A DNA stretch of 5,545 nt, taken from a virus. Position 1 is the stretch's first letter. Every line of letters begins with the position of its first letter. The stretch covers positions 1 through 5,545 of IMG/VR virus record IMGVR_UViG_3300045988_112371; one strand, 5' to 3'. A program made the translations under genes and the position numbers. Of the stretch, positions 1 to 5,545 are shown one piece after another. A model generated the notes under the pieces. That model was not told where the DNA came from, made no database searches, and was given only the letters and a program-made list of their open reading frames with translations.

Positions 1-55
1 CATGACGAGCAGCGGAATTACTAAGAGCACCACCAATAATAGATGCGACGCCACC
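1..55. repeat. Terminal direct repeat, copy 1 (identical to 5491..5545); overlap of a circularly permuted or circular assembly
   Basis: Bases 1..55 (catgacgagcagcggaattactaagagcaccaccaataatagatgcgacgccacc) recur exactly at 5491..5545. The repeat lies inside one continuous minus-strand reading frame (VP2). An overlap of exactly 55 nt looks like a k-mer overlap from an assembler (inference). Confidence 0.95.
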
Positions 56-109: not shown

Positions 110-1819
110 TTAGAAATGGCCCATCATTCCAGGAATACCATACATAGGCATAGGACGGATACATTTAAGATTAAATTTAACATCTAAGAGGAAATGAGGA
201 TAGGAAGGAACAGCGACAACACGGCTAATAGGCGGATGGTCTTGAATAAACTCATCCGACAATGTAGGCAGCGTAACAAATTTTTGAGAAAGATGCCAAA
301 TATCTAAAGGCTCCTTATAAGTCGAGCGAAATTGACCGGTAATCAAAGACGGCTTGTAGCGGTATTCAGCATAGCGCTCTTGGTAGCCAAATACTTTTTT
401 ATCATCTTCATTTCCTTGGCAATAAATTTCAATATTTTCTATAGCTTGTTCGCCAAGATGAGCAAAGGACGGCCAGTAAAAGTCCAGTACGTCGGAACGC
501 AGCCACATTTTATTTACTCCTTGCTGATAAGTCAAATCAGCACGAACGTTAATTAAGCCGATAACATAACCAAATTCAGAAAAAGATTTTGTAAAGGCAT
601 GATAACGCTGGGCATTAAGTCCATAAGCAGCTAAATTACCTTGAGGAGTAGTAGAATCAGTGGAACTTGTCTGTGTAACCGGATTGATGTTCATCATACT
701 ACTATGACTACCAAGAAACTCCGGACGTTGCAGCCGAGCATCAGGATTAGTCACACCGAAATGAGCTTGTAATTTTTCTGTGTAACGAGTACCGCCGCGG
801 GCGTCAATCTCATAATAACGCTGGAGCATAAACGCTTGACGAAGAGAATTAATAGTTATTGAAGTTGCTGAAGAAAGGTCGACAGTAGAACCAGCAGTTA
901 AAACGCCTTGGGTAGCAGAAACAGTAGCAGAACCACGGAATCCGCCGACATAAGCACGGTCATAAGCGTTACGATCAAGAGTCATAGAATTAACAGCAGT
1001 AACATTATCAGCAACAGTAGAGCTAGAAGCATCACCATAATAAAGGGACGTAGAACCCAAATTATTACCGGTAGAAGATAAGAAATACAAATCTTTAGTA
1101 GCAGGATTGGGAACAATAGAAGCAGTTTGACCTAAAGGCAAATCAACAGCCGGGCCTTTTTGTGGCCAAGGCAGCGCACCGGTGAAGTAATCATATCTTT
1201 TTCCACGTGGGGCCGGGTCATACCAATTTGTTACACCGGACGGCATACCATAATTAGGATTAGCGGTAGATTGTCCCATAGGTTCAAGCACTGTGTTAGT
1301 TTCGCCTTTGCTAACTTTAACAGATTTTTGTAAGTTCTCGTCACGGAACCACTCGTTCCATATAGTCCAGTAGCAGCGAAACGGCAAGCAATTAACAGAA
1401 ACATTATTAAATGTACCAGAAGCGCAAGCAATACCCATATAATCGGGAAGTTTATTTGTCATATCACCGGTAAGAGATACCGTAGGTACAAGATAATCAG
1501 TAGAATCTTCGGGGTTCTCCTGTTCTCCGCAAAGATTAACCCATTTATCATATACGAGCCTACTTGGAACAAAGAAGAAGAAGGACTCAATATAGATATT
1601 ATCCATGAATGGAACTACAGGAGTAGCCAAACGGCAAAATTCAACCGGATTTAAGGTAAACGTATCGCCTGGAATAACTTCATCCACAAAGTAGGGAATC
1701 AGCTGGCCTTCGTTAAAAGTAGTTTTATAAACATGACTTCTATCAAAGACGGAACGGCGAATATTAGCTTGAGGAATCATCGCAAAATGCGATTGATTAA
1801 CACGAATATTACGAGCCAT
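110..1819 (-). CDS. VP1: Major capsid protein VP1 (Microviridae F-type jelly-roll capsid), 569 aa
   Basis: This is the longest ORF. ATG at 1819 has AAGGAG (1828..1833) 8 nt upstream. Hallmark Microviridae capsid blocks are present: N-terminal RSVFDRSH...TFNEGQLIPYFVDEVIPGDTF, DYFTGALPWPQKG, LQRYYEIDARGGTRYTEKLQAHFGV and FGYQERYAEYRYKPS. A Ser/Thr-rich insertion at aa ~231-322 corresponds to the gokushovirus threefold protrusion loop. Confidence 0.95.
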   Translation of the reverse strand: MARNIRVNQSHFAMIPQANIRRSVFDRSHVYKTTFNEGQLIPYFVDEVIPGDTFTLNPVEFCRLATPVVPFMDNIYIESFFFFVPSRLVYDKWVNLCGEQENPEDSTDYLVPTVSLTGDMTNKLPDYMGIACASGTFNNVSVNCLPFRCYWTIWNEWFRDENLQKSVKVSKGETNTVLEPMGQSTANPNYGMPSGVTNWYDPAPRGKRYDYFTGALPWPQKGPAVDLPLGQTASIVPNPATKDLYFLSSTGNNLGSTSLYYGDASSSTVADNVTAVNSMTLDRNAYDRAYVGGFRGSATVSATQGVLTAGSTVDLSSATSITINSLRQAFMLQRYYEIDARGGTRYTEKLQAHFGVTNPDARLQRPEFLGSHSSMMNINPVTQTSSTDSTTPQGNLAAYGLNAQRYHAFTKSFSEFGYVIGLINVRADLTYQQGVNKMWLRSDVLDFYWPSFAHLGEQAIENIEIYCQGNEDDKKVFGYQERYAEYRYKPSLITGQFRSTYKEPLDIWHLSQKFVTLPTLSDEFIQDHPPISRVVAVPSYPHFLLDVKFNLKCIRPMPMYGIPGMMGHF

Positions 1820-1940
1820 AGTATAAACTCCTTAATTTTAATAAAAAGCCGAAAAGCACGAGAACGGCATTTTCGTTATCAAATACGAAGGTAATTAAAA
1901 ATAAATAAAAGGCTTATTTTTGAAGATTTTTCGTATTTTG

Positions 1941-1988
1941 TGTCACCTTGACCAGTTACTATCAAGTAGGTAACTGGTCAAGGTGACA
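1941..1988 (-). repeat. Perfect 19-bp inverted repeat with a 10-nt loop (stem-loop) in the VP3-VP1 intergenic region; candidate plus-strand replication origin
   Basis: 1941..1959 (tgtcaccttgaccagttac) is the exact reverse complement of 1970..1988. The loop at 1960..1969 reads CTACTTGATA on the minus (viral) strand. No U-run follows on the coding strand, so it is not a canonical intrinsic terminator. Confidence 0.6.
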
Positions 1989-2026: not shown

Positions 2027-2470
2027 TTATTTTTGCTCTGAATTAGACTCTCCTGCTGCCGAAGTGGTAGATTCTTCCGAACTGTCTTCACTAGCTTTAG
2101 GTTTAAGGCCTAACTCCTCTAGTCTGGAAGTAACCTTAGGATCAGTAGAAGTTAGAGCATCAAGCAGCTGCCTTGGATCATTACCAAATTCAGCACGAAC
2201 GCTGGAAGGCAAATCTGCAAATTCTGCATTAACATTTGCAACAAGGTTGCAAGCAGTTTCATAATCCGGAAGTAGCGTTGTATCTCCATACTGTAAAGTA
2301 GCCGGGTCATGCGCTCCGACAGAATCAACAATGCCGGTAGTATTAAAATTAGCGATAATATGATGAATATCGCATTCTTCGGCGAATGTTTGGTCAGCAA
2401 GCGAAGGCTGTGTAATTTCTACGTGCGGTTTTGGCGGTTGCTCATCGTATAACGTAAAAAACTTAGCCAT
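2027..2470 (-). CDS. VP3: Internal scaffolding protein VP3, 147 aa
   Basis: ATG at 2470 has AAAGGAG (2481..2487) 10 nt upstream. It matches recalled gokushovirus VP3 motifs: QTFAEECDIHHII..F..TG, LQYGD....PDYETA.N.V, F..LPSSVRAEFGNDPRQLLD and an acidic/Ser-rich C-terminus. Confidence 0.9.
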   Translation of the reverse strand: MAKFFTLYDEQPPKPHVEITQPSLADQTFAEECDIHHIIANFNTTGIVDSVGAHDPATLQYGDTTLLPDYETACNLVANVNAEFADLPSSVRAEFGNDPRQLLDALTSTDPKVTSRLEELGLKPKASEDSSEESTTSAAGESNSEQK

Positions 2471-2540
2471 GCGTAAAAATCTCCTTTCTTAACCTAACAA
2501 GGCGCGCAGGTTAGTTTTGCGTAAGGCTCAATTCTCGTCC

Positions 2541-2570
2541 GCGATTGTTACGAAGCAATGAGCGATTGTT
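2541..2570. repeat. Two copies of a 9-bp direct repeat, gcgattgtt (2541..2549 and 2562..2570), spaced 21 bp apart
   Basis: Exact repeat seen in the long VP5-VP3 intergenic region. The spacing equals two helical turns. Chance occurrence within ~180 nt cannot be ruled out. Confidence 0.4.
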
Positions 2571-2596
2571 CCAGCTGGCGAACAGCAAATCCAATC

Positions 2597-2615
2597 ATTC
2601 CGGCATAGCCGGAAT
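2597..2615. repeat. GC-rich palindromic hairpin (8-bp stem, 3-nt loop): attccggc-ata-gccggaat
   Basis: Exact inverted repeat 2597..2604 / 2608..2615, immediately downstream (on the coding strand) of the T-run of the putative terminator. Confidence 0.6.
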
Positions 2616-2617
2616 AT

Positions 2618-2654
2618 AAAAACAAAAAAGACGCCTAACATTACGCTAGACGCC
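2618..2654 (-). terminator. Putative rho-independent terminator after the VP5-like gene
   Basis: On the minus strand, GGCGUCUA (2654..2647) pairs with UAGGCGUC (2637..2630). The stem is 8 bp with two G.U wobbles and the loop is 9 nt. TTTTTTGTTTTT (2629..2618) follows directly. The structure starts right after the TAA stop at 2655..2657. Confidence 0.5.
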
Positions 2655-3014
2655 TTAATTGCGTTGTGATATTACAACTTGCCTTGTCAGTATTATATCA
2701 CAACATTTGAAAGCGGGCAAGCGTACCTTATAACTACATTTTAGCAGTCTGGGGGGGGGAGTCAATAGCTCCGTGGCAGTAGACAAAAGCAAAGTGGGAT
2801 TTTGTGGGGAAAATTCACAAGTCTTATCGTCGAACACGCCAAGATACATCAGAACGAAGTCCTCGTGGTAATCATGGATAATATTGGAACGCTCCGGCGT
2901 CGAAGGCTGATTAACCATAATTTGGAATTGACGAATAGCCATAGCATTATTTTGTTGGGTAAAGGGCGGGTTCATTAACTCGCCCTTGCGGTCATAAATA
3001 CAATAAAGCTTCAT
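2655..3014 (-). CDS. VP5-like small non-structural protein (119 aa as written; the 3' end is doubtful, see the C9 tract)
   Basis: ATG at 3014 overlaps the upstream stop as ATGA, with GAGGTG (3020..3025) 5 nt upstream. The N-terminal 85 aa (MKLYCIYDRKGELMNPPF...AMAIRQF..MVN.......II....EDFVLMYLGVFDDKT.EF) fit the pattern I recall for gokushovirus VP5/ORF5 proteins, and the position between VP4 and VP3 also fits. The last ~31 codons are Cys/Lys-rich, look non-coding, and overlap an inverted repeat and a promoter-like motif. Confidence 0.7.
   Translation of the reverse strand: MKLYCIYDRKGELMNPPFTQQNNAMAIRQFQIMVNQPSTPERSNIIHDYHEDFVLMYLGVFDDKTCEFSPQNPTLLLSTATELLTPPPRLLKCSYKVRLPAFKCCDIILTRQVVISQRN
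2663..2704. repeat. 10-bp perfect inverted repeat (gttgtgatat ... atatcacaac) with a 22-nt spacer
   Basis: 2663..2672 is the exact reverse complement of 2695..2704. One arm overlaps the -10 element of the candidate promoter at 2692..2720. Confidence 0.7.
2692..2720 (-). promoter_or_regulatory. Candidate sigma70-type promoter with extended -10 (TTGCCC - 17 nt - TGaTATAAT)
   Basis: On the minus strand, TATAAT lies at 2697..2692 and is preceded by TGA (extended -10 TGn). After a 17-nt spacer the -35 is TTGCCC (2720..2715), matching TTGACA at 4 of 6 positions. It lies within the doubtful tail of the VP5-like ORF, upstream of VP3. Confidence 0.35.
2751..2759 (-). repeat. Homopolymer: G9 on the plus strand = C9 on the coding strand, inside the VP5-like CDS (codons PPP)
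   Basis: Counted directly: ggggggggg at 2751..2759. Confidence 0.95.
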
Positions 3015-3313
3015 TTTTTCACCTCAAAATTTTTTTTCTTGAGCAAAGCAAGGAATTCCTGTTTTGCCAAATGCGGAACAACAAAATACAATCCGTCGAA
3101 CAAAACAACCTTATTGTCAGAAACAAGGTCTACACGATTCTGAGCCTTGACGAAACATCCAACAACATGATTTTTACACCATTGACGAGCAGCGGAATAA
3201 GATGTAAACATTGGATAATCATCAAGATAAGAAAAAGCATCATCGTATAAATCACGAACAGACTGTTTTTCAAAACCTAAAGAAATAATTTGATCAGCAT
3301 AATCTTTTAACAT
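3011..3313 (-). CDS. Hypothetical protein, 100 aa (orphan accessory gene between VP4 and VP5-like)
   Basis: The ORF track begins at a TTG at 3370, but that would place a consensus promoter inside the gene. ATG at 3313 has GTGAGGT (about 3321..3327) 8 nt upstream and lies downstream of the predicted transcription start. The product begins MLKDYADQIISLGFEKQSVRDLYDD.... I recognise no family motif. The stop overlaps the next start (ATGA at 3011..3014), implying translational coupling. Confidence 0.7.
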   Translation of the reverse strand: MLKDYADQIISLGFEKQSVRDLYDDAFSYLDDYPMFTSYSAARQWCKNHVVGCFVKAQNRVDLVSDNKVVLFDGLYFVVPHLAKQEFLALLKKKNFEVKK

Positions 3314-3338
3314 ATTGCTTACCTCACTTTCTGTATAT

Positions 3339-3367
3339 ATTATACCATGAGGAAATGCAACTGTCAA
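3339..3367 (-). promoter_or_regulatory. Full-consensus sigma70 promoter: TTGACA - 17 nt - TGgTATAAT (extended -10)
   Basis: The minus strand reads TTGACA (3367..3362), the spacer gttgcatttcctcatgg (17 nt), then TATAAT (3344..3339). The spacer ends in TGG, giving TGnTATAAT. The predicted start is near A at ~3332, about 19 nt before ATG 3313. Confidence 0.8.
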
Positions 3368-3370
3368 CAA

Positions 3371-3400
3371 CTTTTTGCAACTTTTTACAACTTTTACAAA
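3371..3400 (-). repeat. Three tandem 10-bp A-tract repeats (TTTGTAAAAG / TTGTAAAAAG / TTGCAAAAAG) abutting the -35 element
   Basis: The minus strand at 3400..3371 reads TTTGTAAAAGTTGTAAAAAGTTGCAAAAAG and is followed by TTGTTGACA. The exact 10-bp phasing of A4-A5 tracts is typical of intrinsically bent DNA or UP-element-like upstream activating sequence. The VP4 stop codon (3394..3396) lies inside the first unit. Confidence 0.8.
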
Positions 3401-4338
3401 CCTAAATTATCAAAATCACGCTCAAATTGTTCCTGCCGATGCTTCATAATCTTCTCCTTGGCTTCCAGCCTTTTGATATCAATGATAGCAGCTTTAGCAT
3501 TATCAGCCTTATTTTGCTTGTATATACTATACCAAACGGGATTACTGCGTTCAAAAAGTGTTTGATAGTAACGAGGTATTTTATACTTAGCTCCATTAAT
3601 TGTAACAAAGCCTAATTTAAAAATATCCTCAGAATAAAGGCCGAAATAGTCAGCTCCGATACCTGGCTTTAGAGAGCTGCCGACAAACTCAGGACTAATA
3701 CCGAGAGCATCATACATAACAGCATTTTTGCCAGTCTGCTTTTTGAGACTATATTTGGCAACATAACGAGCTGACTCAAATGTTATAGCTCCGACAGTAT
3801 TATAACCATATGGCCAAAGTTTCTCCAGCGTGGGAGAGCGAAAGAGGTTATAGCCAGCTGTCAACGCCGAGATTTTGCGGACATCAGCAGGAAACCAACC
3901 AAAGCACAAAATATGATAATGTGGACGGCGATTAAGATCGCCATACTCACCGCAACATAAAAAGCGGATTTTAGAATTATCATGATAGTCTAAATAACGG
4001 CGAAGCCGTTTAAAAAATAACTGCAAGTGCTCACGATGAAGCGAATGGTCCGCTGGTAAACAATCATCATCATAAGTAAGCGTTATAAAACAGTTATGCA
4101 AATGCAGTTTAGCCTCATGCACGCAGCGTATAGCCCAATCATTAGCCTTGTCCAGACGACAGCCTAAACACTGACCGCAGGGAACAACAACAGCATAATT
4201 ATTAGCTAGCTCACTTTTAGCGATTTCTAAAGATTTACCAGCAAGATCACGATAAGATACAAAATTAGACAACTCATACTTGCCATTAGAATTAGGCACA
4301 GCAGAGCGTTTTGCAAACATAGGATTTAGGCAAGTCAT
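3394..4338 (-). CDS. VP4: Replication initiation protein VP4 (HUH rolling-circle endonuclease), 314 aa from ATG 4338 (an alternative GTG at 4347 would add 3 aa)
   Basis: RCR motifs are present: CFITLTY (motif 1), PHYHILCFG with H-Y-H encoded at 3913..3921 (HUH, motif 2) and ARYVAKYSLKK with Tyr codons at 3763..3765 and 3751..3753 (motif 3, catalytic Tyr pair). The PCGQCLGCRLDKANDWAIR block typical of microvirus VP4 is also present. The N-terminus MTCLNP resembles the usual VP4 start. There is no strong SD, and the start lies 15 nt after the stop of the upstream small gene, so coupling is possible. Confidence 0.93.
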   Translation of the reverse strand: MTCLNPMFAKRSAVPNSNGKYELSNFVSYRDLAGKSLEIAKSELANNYAVVVPCGQCLGCRLDKANDWAIRCVHEAKLHLHNCFITLTYDDDCLPADHSLHREHLQLFFKRLRRYLDYHDNSKIRFLCCGEYGDLNRRPHYHILCFGWFPADVRKISALTAGYNLFRSPTLEKLWPYGYNTVGAITFESARYVAKYSLKKQTGKNAVMYDALGISPEFVGSSLKPGIGADYFGLYSEDIFKLGFVTINGAKYKIPRYYQTLFERSNPVWYSIYKQNKADNAKAAIIDIKRLEAKEKIMKHRQEQFERDFDNLGL

Positions 4339-4353
4339 AATACACACATCTTT

Positions 4354-4467
4354 CTACATGCGGATACCGCCACGCATGTTTCTTGATTTAAGATTTTTGA
4401 GCCGTGGAACGGAGTGATTGCGAAAGTTACGGCGAGAAGCTCCACGGGAAATTCTACTTCTTTTCAT
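4354..4467 (-). CDS. VP8: Small arginine-rich DNA-binding/packaging protein (37 aa; VP8/ORF8-like, functional analogue of phiX174 J); absent from the supplied ORF track
   Basis: Hand translation from ATG 4467 gives MKRSRISRGASRRNFRNHSVPRLKNLKSRNMRGGIRM, ending at TAG (4354..4356). It has 10 Arg and 3 Lys, with no acidic residues. AAGGAG (4476..4481) lies 8 nt upstream. The C-terminal MRGGIR motif matches what I recall for gokushovirus ORF8 proteins. Confidence 0.8.
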   Translation of the reverse strand: MKRSRISRGASRRNFRNHSVPRLKNLKSRNMRGGIRM

Positions 4468-4505
4468 TTTTTTTGCTCCTTAAATAAAGACCAAAACAAA
4501 GGATA

Positions 4506-4775
4506 TTAAGAATTTTTTCCCAGAAAGCGGGAGTAGCTTTTCTCTTCCGCCTGCGCTGCAGCTGCATGGCGAAAGCCATTTACGTCATCTGTGCCTCTTT
4601 TCTGCATATTAACAAGATCGTCCTGCATAGCCAAAGAGAGAGCTTTAAGGCTTGCGCTGCCTTCACGATCATATTTACCGGTACGAAACATGTCGATAAA
4701 ATCAACAACCTCTTGGATGAACGGAATTACAGTAGATACAAGAAAAGTCAAAATAGCAGTAGTTTTGTTAGACAT
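4506..4775 (-). CDS. Hypothetical membrane-anchored protein, 89 aa (one N-terminal transmembrane segment)
   Basis: The track ORF starts at TTG 4784, but ATG at 4775 has GGAGG (4785..4789) 9 nt upstream, and that GGAGG overlaps the VP2 stop (GGAGGTTGA). The product is MSNKTTAILTFLVSTVIPFIQEVV..., a hydrophobic stretch of ~18 residues followed by a charged soluble tail. I recognise no family. Confidence 0.7.
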   Translation of the reverse strand: MSNKTTAILTFLVSTVIPFIQEVVDFIDMFRTGKYDREGSASLKALSLAMQDDLVNMQKRGTDDVNGFRHAAAAQAEEKSYSRFLGKNS

Positions 4776-4780
4776 ATAAA

Positions 4781-5545
4781 TCAACCTCCAAAATAAATTT
4801 TTTTAGCCTTGTCAAGGAGCTTACCGAAAGCACCACCAATAGAACCAGCAATAGAAGAATCAGTATCAAAACCATATTTGCCACGCATCTCATTCTGCAT
4901 AGATGCACGGCTAGTAGCTTCTTTAGACTGTGCAGTAAGCTGACCACTATATGCTGCAGAACTATTAGCAGCATTACCTTGGGCAATCATCATATTAGCT
5001 TGTGCCGGCATAATAACATCACGCTGATAAATAGCATTTTTTGTTTGCTCATCAATAAGAGCACCCTGTTTTTCAGCATTTTTCAAATTCTGTTTATATA
5101 AAGCAACATTATCAGCATATGTATCAGTAGCTAGCTTATTAGCGAGAGTTTTTCCAGCAGCTTCAGCTTCATAATTCTTTGCAGAAGCAGCATTTAAAAC
5201 AACATCAGAATCGAGCTTTTTTATAGTACCTTCTCCAACACGCTGAGCAGTATCTGCCTGCTTTTGAGCAGCCTTAGCAGAACTACCAGCAGCTTGAGCA
5301 GACATCCCGGCAGTAACGCCTTCGCCAATATTATAATTAGCGGAAAGAGCAGAAGCTCCATTAACAGAGCCGCCAATACCTTGCGTAGCAGCAAGAATAG
5401 GGTTCAATCCAGCTTTTTGCATATCTTCCATTGACCATTGATAGCGATGCTGGTAATTATAAATATTACGCTGATTAGCTACTGTTGCAGCATGACGAGC
5501 AGCGGAATTACTAAGAGCACCACCAATAATAGATGCGACGCCACC
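4781..5545 (-). CDS. VP2: VP2 (minor capsid / DNA pilot protein), main segment; the frame is open to the window edge and the true start is ATG 91..89 across the junction (full length 266 aa)
   Basis: The frame is open from 5545 down to TGA at 4781..4783. Upstream of the track Met (5431) it reads ...GGVASIIGGALSNSAARHAATVANQRNIYNYQHRYQWS-MEDMQKAGLNPILAA.... The (K/R)AGLNPIL motif and the Ala/Gln/Gly-rich body are characteristic of gokushovirus VP2. Total length is 91 + 710 nt = 801 nt, or 267 codons including the stop. Confidence 0.88.
   Translation of the reverse strand, partial: GGVASIIGGALSNSAARHAATVANQRNIYNYQHRYQWSMEDMQKAGLNPILAATQGIGGSVNGASALSANYNIGEGVTAGMSAQAAGSSAKAAQKQADTAQRVGEGTIKKLDSDVVLNAASAKNYEAEAAGKTLANKLATDTYADNVALYKQNLKNAEKQGALIDEQTKNAIYQRDVIMPAQANMMIAQGNAANSSAAYSGQLTAQSKEATSRASMQNEMRGKYGFDTDSSIAGSIGGAFGKLLDKAKKIYFGG
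5491..5545. repeat. Terminal direct repeat, copy 2 (identical to 1..55)
   Basis: Exact 55/55 identity with the window start. Confidence 0.95.

Follow-up and report, generated by a model that had tools for sequence, protein, structure and literature searches.

Does the long, perfect hairpin between the scaffold and capsid genes of a gokushovirus genome hold the site at which synthesis of the viral strand begins? Gokushovirus-like microviruses are among the most abundant ssDNA phages in gut, marine and soil viromes, and nearly all of the replication biology of the Microviridae derives from phiX174. The literature that we searched, which excluded the genome papers for Chp2, phiMH2K, SpV4 and Chp1, contained no gokushovirus origin, either mapped or predicted. 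An earlier note on the genome studied here had put forward a hairpin at 1941-1988, with a loop resembling the cleavage decamer of the phiX174 A protein, as a candidate plus-strand origin. The analyses described below support this reading, with nicking by the VP4 protein remaining an inference and a complementary-strand origin not formally excluded.

The window, by which we mean the whole 5545-nt stretch of DNA that was analysed, represents a complete, circular gokushovirus genome. The unit length is 5490 nt, the other 55 nt being terminally redundant, and every gene lies on the minus strand. The major capsid gene VP1 occupies 110..1819 (Pfam Phage_F, 1.8e-169) and starts 121 nt 3′ of the hairpin element, while the scaffold gene VP3 at 2027..2470 (Chlamy_scaf, 3.9e-28) lies directly 5′ of the element on the viral strand. 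Gene calls place the start of an ORF5/VP5-like DNA-binding protein gene at 3014; VP4, the presumed rolling-circle initiator, is encoded at 3394..4347 (REP_ORF2-G2P, 2.4e-23), and VP2 begins at 5431 and runs downwards across the window ends. The closest genomes in GenBank are Gokushovirus WZ-2015a isolates, at ~70% nucleotide identity, and IMG/VR holds about 16 relatives with ~85% VP1 identity. An Rfam search of the window matched no family.

The arms of the hairpin, 1941-1959 and 1970-1988, are 100% complementary over 19 nt with a spacing of 10 nt, and no other local inverted repeat in the window comes near this one in length. Read on the minus strand, the 5′ arm is TGTCACCTTGACCAGTTAC (1988 to 1970), the loop is CTACTTGATA (1969..1960) and the 3′ arm is GTAACTGGTCAAGGTGACA (1959 to 1941). 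When the minus strand is folded as ssDNA, the predicted structure is exactly the 19-bp hairpin (-21.1 kcal/mol, z = -7.45), and none of 200 shuffled sequences was as stable. The loop is identical to the phiX174 cleavage decamer at 9 of 10 positions; its core, CTTG, lies at 1966..1963, with G at 1963 followed by A at 1962. The decamer given in the earlier note proved to be correct, as NC_001422 reads CAACTTGATATTAATAACACTATAGACCAC and has a rep_origin annotated at 4306, the A that follows CAACTTG. The flawless stem in the VP3-VP1 spacer, the 9 of 10 match and the presence of the G/A nick dinucleotide in the window, all claimed in the earlier note, therefore held.

Could the match be fortuitous? 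The loop is the sole match to the decamer with no more than one mismatch in the window, and there is none within VP4. However, shuffled genomes contain a mean of 0.51 such matches, with at least one in 74 of 200 shuffles (37%). Since the decamer match alone is common in shuffles, the single-genome case rests on the coincidence of match and loop, for which we calculate a chance of ~5e-5 per fixed position and strand that a sole decamer match also fills the loop of the strongest hairpin. The claim that an eight-base match in the loop is unlikely by chance was thus only partly upheld: the match alone is not significant, but its coincidence with the loop is improbable. Comparative data, to which we now turn, remove the remaining doubt.

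All ~17 relatives with 84-87% VP1 identity, including one from a genome collection (L133), carry the hairpin 169-173 nt before the VP1 start. Where their stems differ, pairing is kept: TTAC/GTAA is replaced by TTCT/AGAA in L015, a double change, and ACC/GGT is replaced by AAC/GTT in L016 and by ATC/GAT in L019. At 71% VP1 identity (L021), the middle of the stem is altered with compensation and the element lies 175 nt before VP1. In a clade at 54% VP1 identity the stem is a different one, GCCAGTTAC/GTAACTGGC, with the loop TTACTTGAT. Unrelated stems are also found in KT264820 (CAGTGGGAACAGTA, loop ccctacttgatgt) and KT264821 (GTCAGTCGTTCTATAT, loop gcctacttgatat), both with loops containing TACTTG(A/T)T, and in Chlamydia phage Chp2 (CTAGCGTATAACAG, loop tctacttgat). 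In SpV4 (stem TGGGGCATAT, loop attacttgttata) and phiMH2K (stem AGTTCGGCTAC, loop ggaccctacttgttgtaa), the stems are again unrelated, the loops likewise contain TACTTG(A/T)T, and CTTG is followed by T. The match is weaker in Chp1, with the stem GGGCTATAT and the loop cctcttggct, also given as CCTCTTGGCT; none of the four hairpins annotated in the Chp1 GenBank record is the conserved element. A stem with a (C)NACTTGATA-like loop is therefore kept, with compensatory changes, in the intergenic regions of both close and very distant relatives.

A count that presupposed no motif gave the same loop. We oriented 120 genomes by VP1 and tallied all hexamers that fall in the loop of a perfect stem of 7 bp or more; CTTGAT was the top hexamer on the viral strand, occurring in 92 of the 120, and its reverse complement occurred in one. 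The pattern CTTG[AT][TA] lies in the loop of such a stem in 107 of 119 genomes, including Chp2, SpV4 and phiMH2K. For 300 random patterns of equal degeneracy the median was 7 genomes, and the only high controls overlap the same motif. Exactly one hairpin element is present in 100 of the 119 genomes. CTTG is invariant among the recognised elements (alignment A2), although this is partly by construction, since the elements were located with the pattern CTTG[AT][TA]. The base that follows is A in ~78% and T in ~22%, so the G/A dinucleotide of the window is not invariant across the family. Two genomes (L073 and L091) have no obvious element in hairpin and motif scans and are absent from the hits of the covariance model described below up to E = 1.

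The stems differ between lineages and yet stay paired. In a sequence-only alignment of 64 non-redundant elements, in which a 14-pair helix was specified as an explicit structure, the covariation score was 0.346, as against 0.157 for shuffled alignments (none of 500 reached the observed value) and 0.10-0.15 for slid registers. RNAalifold returned no structure for a MAFFT alignment, a null result that we attribute to the 5′ arms being out of register. From the sequence-only alignment we built a covariance model and applied it to a separate collection, 78 loci on GTDB genome contigs. It gave hits at E <= 0.01 in ~60 of the 78, among them tandem prophages in which each has two hits; the window contains one strong site only, on the minus strand, at 59.7 bits. 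In the alignment fitted to this model, 82.5% of cells are paired, compensatory double changes occur in 12 of the 14 pairs, and the covariation score is 0.512, as against 0.150 for shuffled and 0.04-0.07 for slid controls. Although the score on this alignment is somewhat inflated by fitting to the model, we consider the signal real, since the slid controls and the sequence-only result agree. The structure and its covarying conservation across the family are thus shown. The remaining null hypothesis, that the hairpin is a chance palindrome, is excluded by the random-pattern enrichment and the covariation controls.

The hairpin proved to be only part of a larger element, such that the extent given in the earlier note was too small. 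At the base of the stem in the window lies a 3′ box, GGTGACAC (1940..1947, minus strand), with the core TGACAC at 1945..1940. The box has the consensus (A/G)(C/G)TGACAC(C) and was detected in 107 of 111 elements; counted from the C of CTTG, its T is at 20 nt or occasionally 21, and this spacing is fixed across elements. In A2, its T, G, A and C each show conservation of 90% or more, whether they fall inside or outside the stem. The sequence that continues the core on its 3′ side, (A/T)T-G-T-A-A-C-T-G, is likewise conserved whether paired or unpaired (positions +6 to +12), and in the window supplies the opening bases of the 3′ arm, GTAACTG, which are kept in most lineages. CTTGWT-N15-TGACA occurs once in the window. 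The element thus consists of an inverted repeat of 7-20 bp (19 here) with no fixed sequence, a loop of the form (Y)TACTTG/(A/T)T, where the slash marks the predicted cut, and TGACAC ~20 nt downstream. This composite is common to essentially all gokushovirus-like microviruses.

Where does the element lie? It is intergenic, and in 102 of 111 genomes it adjoins the 3′ side of VP3. The gene after it is VP1 in 70, VP4 in 20 and VP8 in 12. As the following gene varies, the element sits at a junction where gene orders differ. The motif is on the coding strand in ~90% of genomes. The single-copy intergenic location and the strand bias are, like the structure, observed rather than inferred. The element occurs in phages and prophages associated with Chlamydia, Spiroplasma, Bdellovibrio, Phascolarctobacterium and Intestinirhabdus, and also with Sutterella, Treponema, Parabacteroides and Clostridia.

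A position almost always directly 3′ of VP3 raises the possibility of a transcription signal, either an intrinsic terminator for VP3 or a promoter or operator in which the TGACA box, which resembles TTGACA, serves as a -35 element. A terminator scan does call the hairpin terminator-like, though on the plus strand. However, among 66 non-redundant elements TTTT follows the stem within 10 nt in just 2, and in the window the coding strand continues past the stem as CAAAATACG, without a T run. A terminator would not need the conserved loop, and a better terminator-like site is present at 2656..2628. As for a promoter, there is no -10 element at the right spacing on the coding strand. The fixed spacing between CTTG and the box also speaks against a transcription signal, as does the presence of the element in phages of Chlamydia and Spiroplasma, hosts that might be expected to differ in promoter signals, although this is an expectation only. 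We regard a transcriptional role as very unlikely.

Some gokushoviruses integrate at dif via non-coding motifs (PMC7062461), and in Phascolarctobacterium prophages the integration junction falls in the same intergenic region. Could the element be a dif-like XerCD attachment site? Intestinirhabdus alba (L144) carries tandem prophages in which the dif-like motifs are at the prophage ends and the element is internal to each copy, between VP3 and VP1. Chp2, for which only a lytic life cycle is known, has the element too. Like the chance palindrome, this explanation can be all but ruled out.

What, then, would recognize the element? VP4 was said in the earlier note to be an initiator of the HUH type with a tyrosine pair, and this held: we find motif 1 as FITLTY, the HUH motif as PHYHIL and the tyrosine motif as YVAKYSLKK (Y195/Y199), for which the counterparts in phiX174 protein A are FDTLTL, LHFHAV and YVAKYVNKK. 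The YVAKY of the two proteins is identical, and blastp aligns them with E = 3e-6. In protein A, Y343 and Y347 are the catalytic tyrosines. A search of the PDB with the VP4 sequence found nothing. Since the core of the loop equals the nick motif of phiX174 and of pC194-type plasmids and VP4 shares the catalytic motifs of protein A, we favor the view that the hairpin is the rolling-circle origin of the viral strand and that VP4 nicks it between G1963 and A1962. The shared core and the shared protein motifs are shown; the origin itself is a likely interpretation reached from sequence alone.

In this view, replication might proceed as follows. In the supercoiled replicative form, the repeat would extrude or melt, exposing the loop as single-stranded DNA. 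VP4, with its HUH motif and YVAKY tyrosine pair, would dock on the stem and the box, cut the coding strand between G1963 and A1962 and become linked to the 5′ A. Synthesis by host polymerase and helicase would then proceed from the 3′ G, with displacement of the strand. Once a full round had restored the site, it would refold in the displaced strand, allowing the second tyrosine to cut it and the ends to be joined, yielding a circular strand for packaging. Cutting by VP4 at the loop, the bond that is cut, extrusion of a cruciform and what the box does are all inferences that no experiment yet supports.

There are also points against this interpretation. Nicking, a covalent adduct and origin activity are without experimental data, the base after the predicted cut may be A or T, and the similarity to phiX174 outside the core is modest. 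Since phiX174 needs no hairpin, the hairpin of gokushoviruses could serve another function and merely overlap the motif.

One such function would be a binding or packaging signal for VP4, VP5 or a basic VP8/J-like protein, with the true nick elsewhere, for example inside VP4. The conservation of TGACAC independent of pairing is what would be expected of a protein-binding site, and CTTGAT does occur elsewhere in these genomes. On the other hand, neither VP4 nor the rest of the window offers a second decamer match, and the hairpin copy of the motif is the only one conserved across genomes. In phiX174, moreover, the replication origin and the site of packaging entry are the same, which argues against a separate packaging signal. 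We consider this alternative very improbable. With respect to the other copies, we asked if CTTGAT is avoided on the viral strand, as would be expected if VP4 cut any single-stranded CTTGAT. It is not: in 577 kb, there are 192 copies outside the element and 142 of the reverse complement. Avoidance is therefore uninformative as an indicator of cutting, and since CTTGAT is not avoided elsewhere, the motif alone would not be a sufficient substrate and context would be required.

The main rival to the viral-strand origin is a complementary-strand origin, at which the hairpin in the incoming ssDNA recruits host RNA polymerase, primase or PriA. Models for such a site are the primosome assembly site of phiX174, the origin hairpins of G4 and M13 ori(-). 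The hairpin is intergenic and on the strand inferred to be packaged, and this role has been assumed for the hairpins of other small microviruses (Olo Ndela et al., PMC9865509). In addition, the spacer between VP3 and VP1 is predicted to be heavily structured, with four hairpins (z = -7.8). Since a complementary-strand origin would also be a hairpin of the packaged strand, the structure, its conservation, enrichment and covariation, its copy number and place, and its link to the packaged strand are equally compatible with either kind of origin.

Three observations do bear on the choice. First, the stems drift, but the loop and the 3′ box are kept in phages whose hosts span at least six bacterial phyla. 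As signals for priming that depend on the host would be expected to differ between hosts, this disfavors a complementary-strand role, although there is no functional test; and as the element is present whatever the host, recognition by a conserved phage protein fits better than recognition by host priming factors. Second, the conserved core is the nick motif of the Rep superfamily to which VP4 itself belongs. Third, two neighboring hairpins, each with compensatory changes of its own, are free for that role. One, at 1881..1938 (minus strand), is a long-range stem formed by the inverted repeat AAATACGAA / TTCGTATTT with a predicted inner A/T stem; in several close relatives, its ACG/CGT is replaced by CAG/CTG with pairing maintained. 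The other, a predicted fold at 1850..1875 (minus strand), consists of CGAAAATGC...GCTTTTCG followed by a T-rich run, ~25 nt ahead of the VP1 ribosome-binding site; in relatives, CG becomes CA where the partner CG becomes TG. The structure at 1881..1938, a model prediction, could possibly be a complementary-strand origin or a regulatory structure separate from the nick-site hairpin. We conclude that a complementary-strand origin is an unlikely explanation of the element at 1941-1988, and that a viral-strand origin accounts for it better.

If the element is a viral-strand origin, does it define the strand that is packaged? We observed 11 genomes in which the whole element, box included, is on the strand complementary to all genes. 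They comprise the genome L128, a group of Clostridia-binned genomes with the gene order VP5-VP3-VP1-VP2-[element]-VP4, and two Prevotella-binned genomes. At four-fold degenerate sites, the T-A skew has a median of +0.54 where the element is on the coding strand (n = 127) and of -0.40 where it is inverted, being negative in 8 of the 11 (Mann-Whitney p = 2e-5, uncorrected for phylogeny). Within one clade, whose VP1 proteins are 55-63% identical, four genomes of normal orientation have skews of +0.32 to +0.55 and four inverted ones have skews of -0.29 to -0.50. There are exceptions: in L128, L192 and L204 the element is inverted but the skew is not clearly so. The strand bearing the motif is thus the T-rich strand, and the skew is mostly inverted where the element is inverted. 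If T-richness marks the time spent single-stranded, the element marks the packaged strand, and the inverted lineages may therefore package the antisense strand. It is conceivable, as a bolder reading, that the element is the viral-strand origin of essentially all microviruses other than phiX174 and sets the strand to be packaged, with the inverted lineages packaging antisense DNA. Were this true, the inverted lineages associated with Clostridia and Prevotella would be of negative sense, in a family regarded as positive-sense throughout.

We also noted that elements lie near contig ends somewhat often, with 18.5% within 5% of genome length compared to 10% expected. The contig ends closest to elements are still 21-105 nt away from the motif, and this mild enrichment is probably an effect of palindromes on assembly.

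The identification of a ~60-nt origin candidate with a predicted cut site makes gokushovirus replication directly testable with a few oligonucleotides. A confirmed origin would give thousands of metagenomic genomes a natural zero coordinate and a strand assignment, and the element would supply the cis sequence for packageable vectors in Chlamydia, Spiroplasma or gut anaerobes. The covariance model would be a simple marker with which to spot microviral replicons and prophages. What appears to be new here is a nick site of the phiX174/pC194 type in a hairpin loop, with a 3′ box, that is shared across the family; an earlier mention in the genome papers for Chp2, phiMH2K, SpV4 and Chp1 cannot be excluded.

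How does the element compare with known origins? The nearest report that our search returned describes intergenic hairpins, of unknown role, in reekeekee- and roodoodoo-microviruses, two clades other than the gokushoviruses, where the loops are conserved and the stems show compensatory substitutions (Olo Ndela et al. 2022, PMC9865509). The authors tentatively considered initiation of the negative strand, and the passages that bear on the hairpins do not tie them to the cleavage motif of protein A.

A close counterpart is phiX174, which belongs to the same virus family and has a homologous initiator. Its origin is a 30-nt site, CAACTTG/ATATTAATAACACTATAGACCAC, cut by protein A. phiX174 and the window share the core ACTTGATA on the viral strand, and in each genome it is present in a single copy. 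Beyond the core, the G of GACCAC in phiX174 lies at +21 from the same C, an offset equal to that of the GAC in the gokushovirus box. A weight matrix derived from gokushovirus elements ranks the phiX174 origin 3rd of the 10,772 positions in that genome. Scored separately, the portion 3′ of the core comes only 154th (~1.4%) and the box alone 669th of 10,772 (top 6%). As the 3′ part and the box rank so modestly, we regard co-linearity with the whole 30-nt origin as possible and no more than suggestive, and make no claim that the 3′ parts are homologous. Nor does the gokushovirus covariance model have a hit in phiX174. The setting also differs. The phiX174 origin is within gene A and has an AT-rich spacer and no flanking repeat, whereas the gokushovirus site is intergenic and has a 19-bp stem, the 3′ arm of which replaces the spacer. 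We found no stem of 4 bp or more around the phiX174 nick site, which bears out the view, also expressed in the earlier note, that this origin lacks a hairpin.

A second counterpart is found in plasmids of the pC194/pUB110 family, whose initiators are in the same Rep superfamily as protein A. Their origins read ...TTATCTTGATA (also ...TTCTTTCTTATCTTGATA), with CTTGATA as the conserved end (PMC5031790; see also the origin sequences in PMC7072734), and this nick heptamer equals 1966..1960 of the window. The conserved sequence upstream in the plasmids, TTCTTTCTTAT, is absent here, where CAGTTACCTA precedes CTTGATA. By eye only, the plasmid origins as quoted have no comparable stem directly around CTTGATA.

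In architecture, the element matches the stem-loops of circoviruses, geminiviruses and other CRESS-DNA viruses, as well as IR-II of pT181, in which a short conserved loop motif is likewise presented by a stem that changes with compensation. The CRESS-DNA hairpins also adjoin the rep-capsid junction and define the encapsidated strand. However, the motif differs, the CRESS nonanucleotide being NANTATTAC where the gokushovirus element has TACTTGAT (in the window, the whole loop is CTACTTGATA), and CRESS Reps, which have one tyrosine and a helicase domain, are of a different lineage from VP4. No iterated binding motifs were seen beside the stem in the window, only the single TGACAC box. Judging from sequence alone, the CTTGAT nick motif appears to be ancient, and its presentation in a hairpin appears to be the usual arrangement in the family, from which phiX174 departs. 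In evolution, the element would link the linear origin of phiX174 and the origins of pC194 plasmids to the hairpin-loop origins of other HUH replicons.

In 11 of the compared gokushovirus-like genomes (L165, L170, L172, L175, L192, L196, L204, L205, L176, L201 and L128), the whole origin-like element, including its conserved TGACAC box, is on the strand that carries none of the genes. The excess of T over A at four-fold degenerate codon positions is reversed in eight of these 11, and sister genomes with the element in its normal orientation have a positive skew. It is possible that the inverted-element genomes belong to microviruses that package the antisense strand.

In two Phascolarctobacterium genomes (L135 and L187), the point at which the integrated gokushovirus prophages are linearised falls between VP1 and the origin-like hairpin, and the attachment site therefore lies in the same spacer, about 100 nt or less from the element. 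In Intestinirhabdus alba (NZ_WMJZ01000007.1; L144), locus 1929-10611 contains two tandem gokushovirus prophages, in which the gene order VP4-VP3-VP1-VP2 occurs twice, with dif-like motifs on either side of the pair (1929 and 10584). An origin-like hairpin is present in each copy, and the two hairpins are not the same in their outer stems.

The VP3-VP1 spacer of the window contains two extra hairpins on the minus strand, at 1881-1938 and 1850-1875, between the origin-like hairpin and VP1. Pairing of both is kept in close relatives by compensatory changes, from ACG/CGT to CAG/CTG in the former and from CG..CG to CA..TG in the latter, which is followed by a T-rich run shortly ahead of the VP1 ribosome-binding site. 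These hairpins might serve as a complementary-strand origin or as VP1 expression signals, and we regard both roles as candidates only. The clade at 54% VP1 identity carries a second conserved hairpin of its own, approximately 60 nt upstream of VP1 (AAACCTAATAAT / aatttgctttaggtta / ATTATTAGGTTT), part of whose stem sequence (TTAGGTT) recurs in the loop. Found in L023, L025, L026, L028, L031, L034, L040, L080 and other members, and in two copies in L026, this hairpin is absent from the window. Another apparent hairpin, with a 62-bp arm (CTGTCTCTTATACACATCTCCGAGCCCACGAGAC...) in contig L077 (IMGVR_UViG_3300045988_001800), contains what we take to be the palindrome of a Nextera-type sequencing-library adapter; on this identification, it is an assembly artefact within a public viral contig.

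A second non-coding stretch of the window (2471-2770) separates the VP5-like ORF from VP3. Its coding strand has two promoter-like sites, at 2765..2738 and 2720..2692; beyond them come a terminator-like hairpin that ends in a T run (2656..2628) and an additional 8-bp hairpin (2616..2596). The same strand also shows nine consecutive Gs (2752-2760), as well as an inverted repeat of 10 bp (2663-2672 / 2695-2704).

Since window positions 1-55 are identical to 5491-5545, a terminal redundancy of 55 nt, the contig represents a closed circle; VP2 appears truncated in ORF lists because its gene spans the window ends. Two ORFs on the minus strand are without an assigned function: the 119-codon ORF at 3011-3370 lacks any family match, and the 92-codon ORF at 4506-4784 matches PHROG 23638, a family of unknown function. 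On the same strand, a 41-codon ORF a short way upstream of VP4 (4454-4579) encodes a highly arginine-rich peptide (MKRSRISRGASRRNFRNH...) that matched no Pfam or PHROG family but is similar to the small DNA-binding VP8/J proteins.
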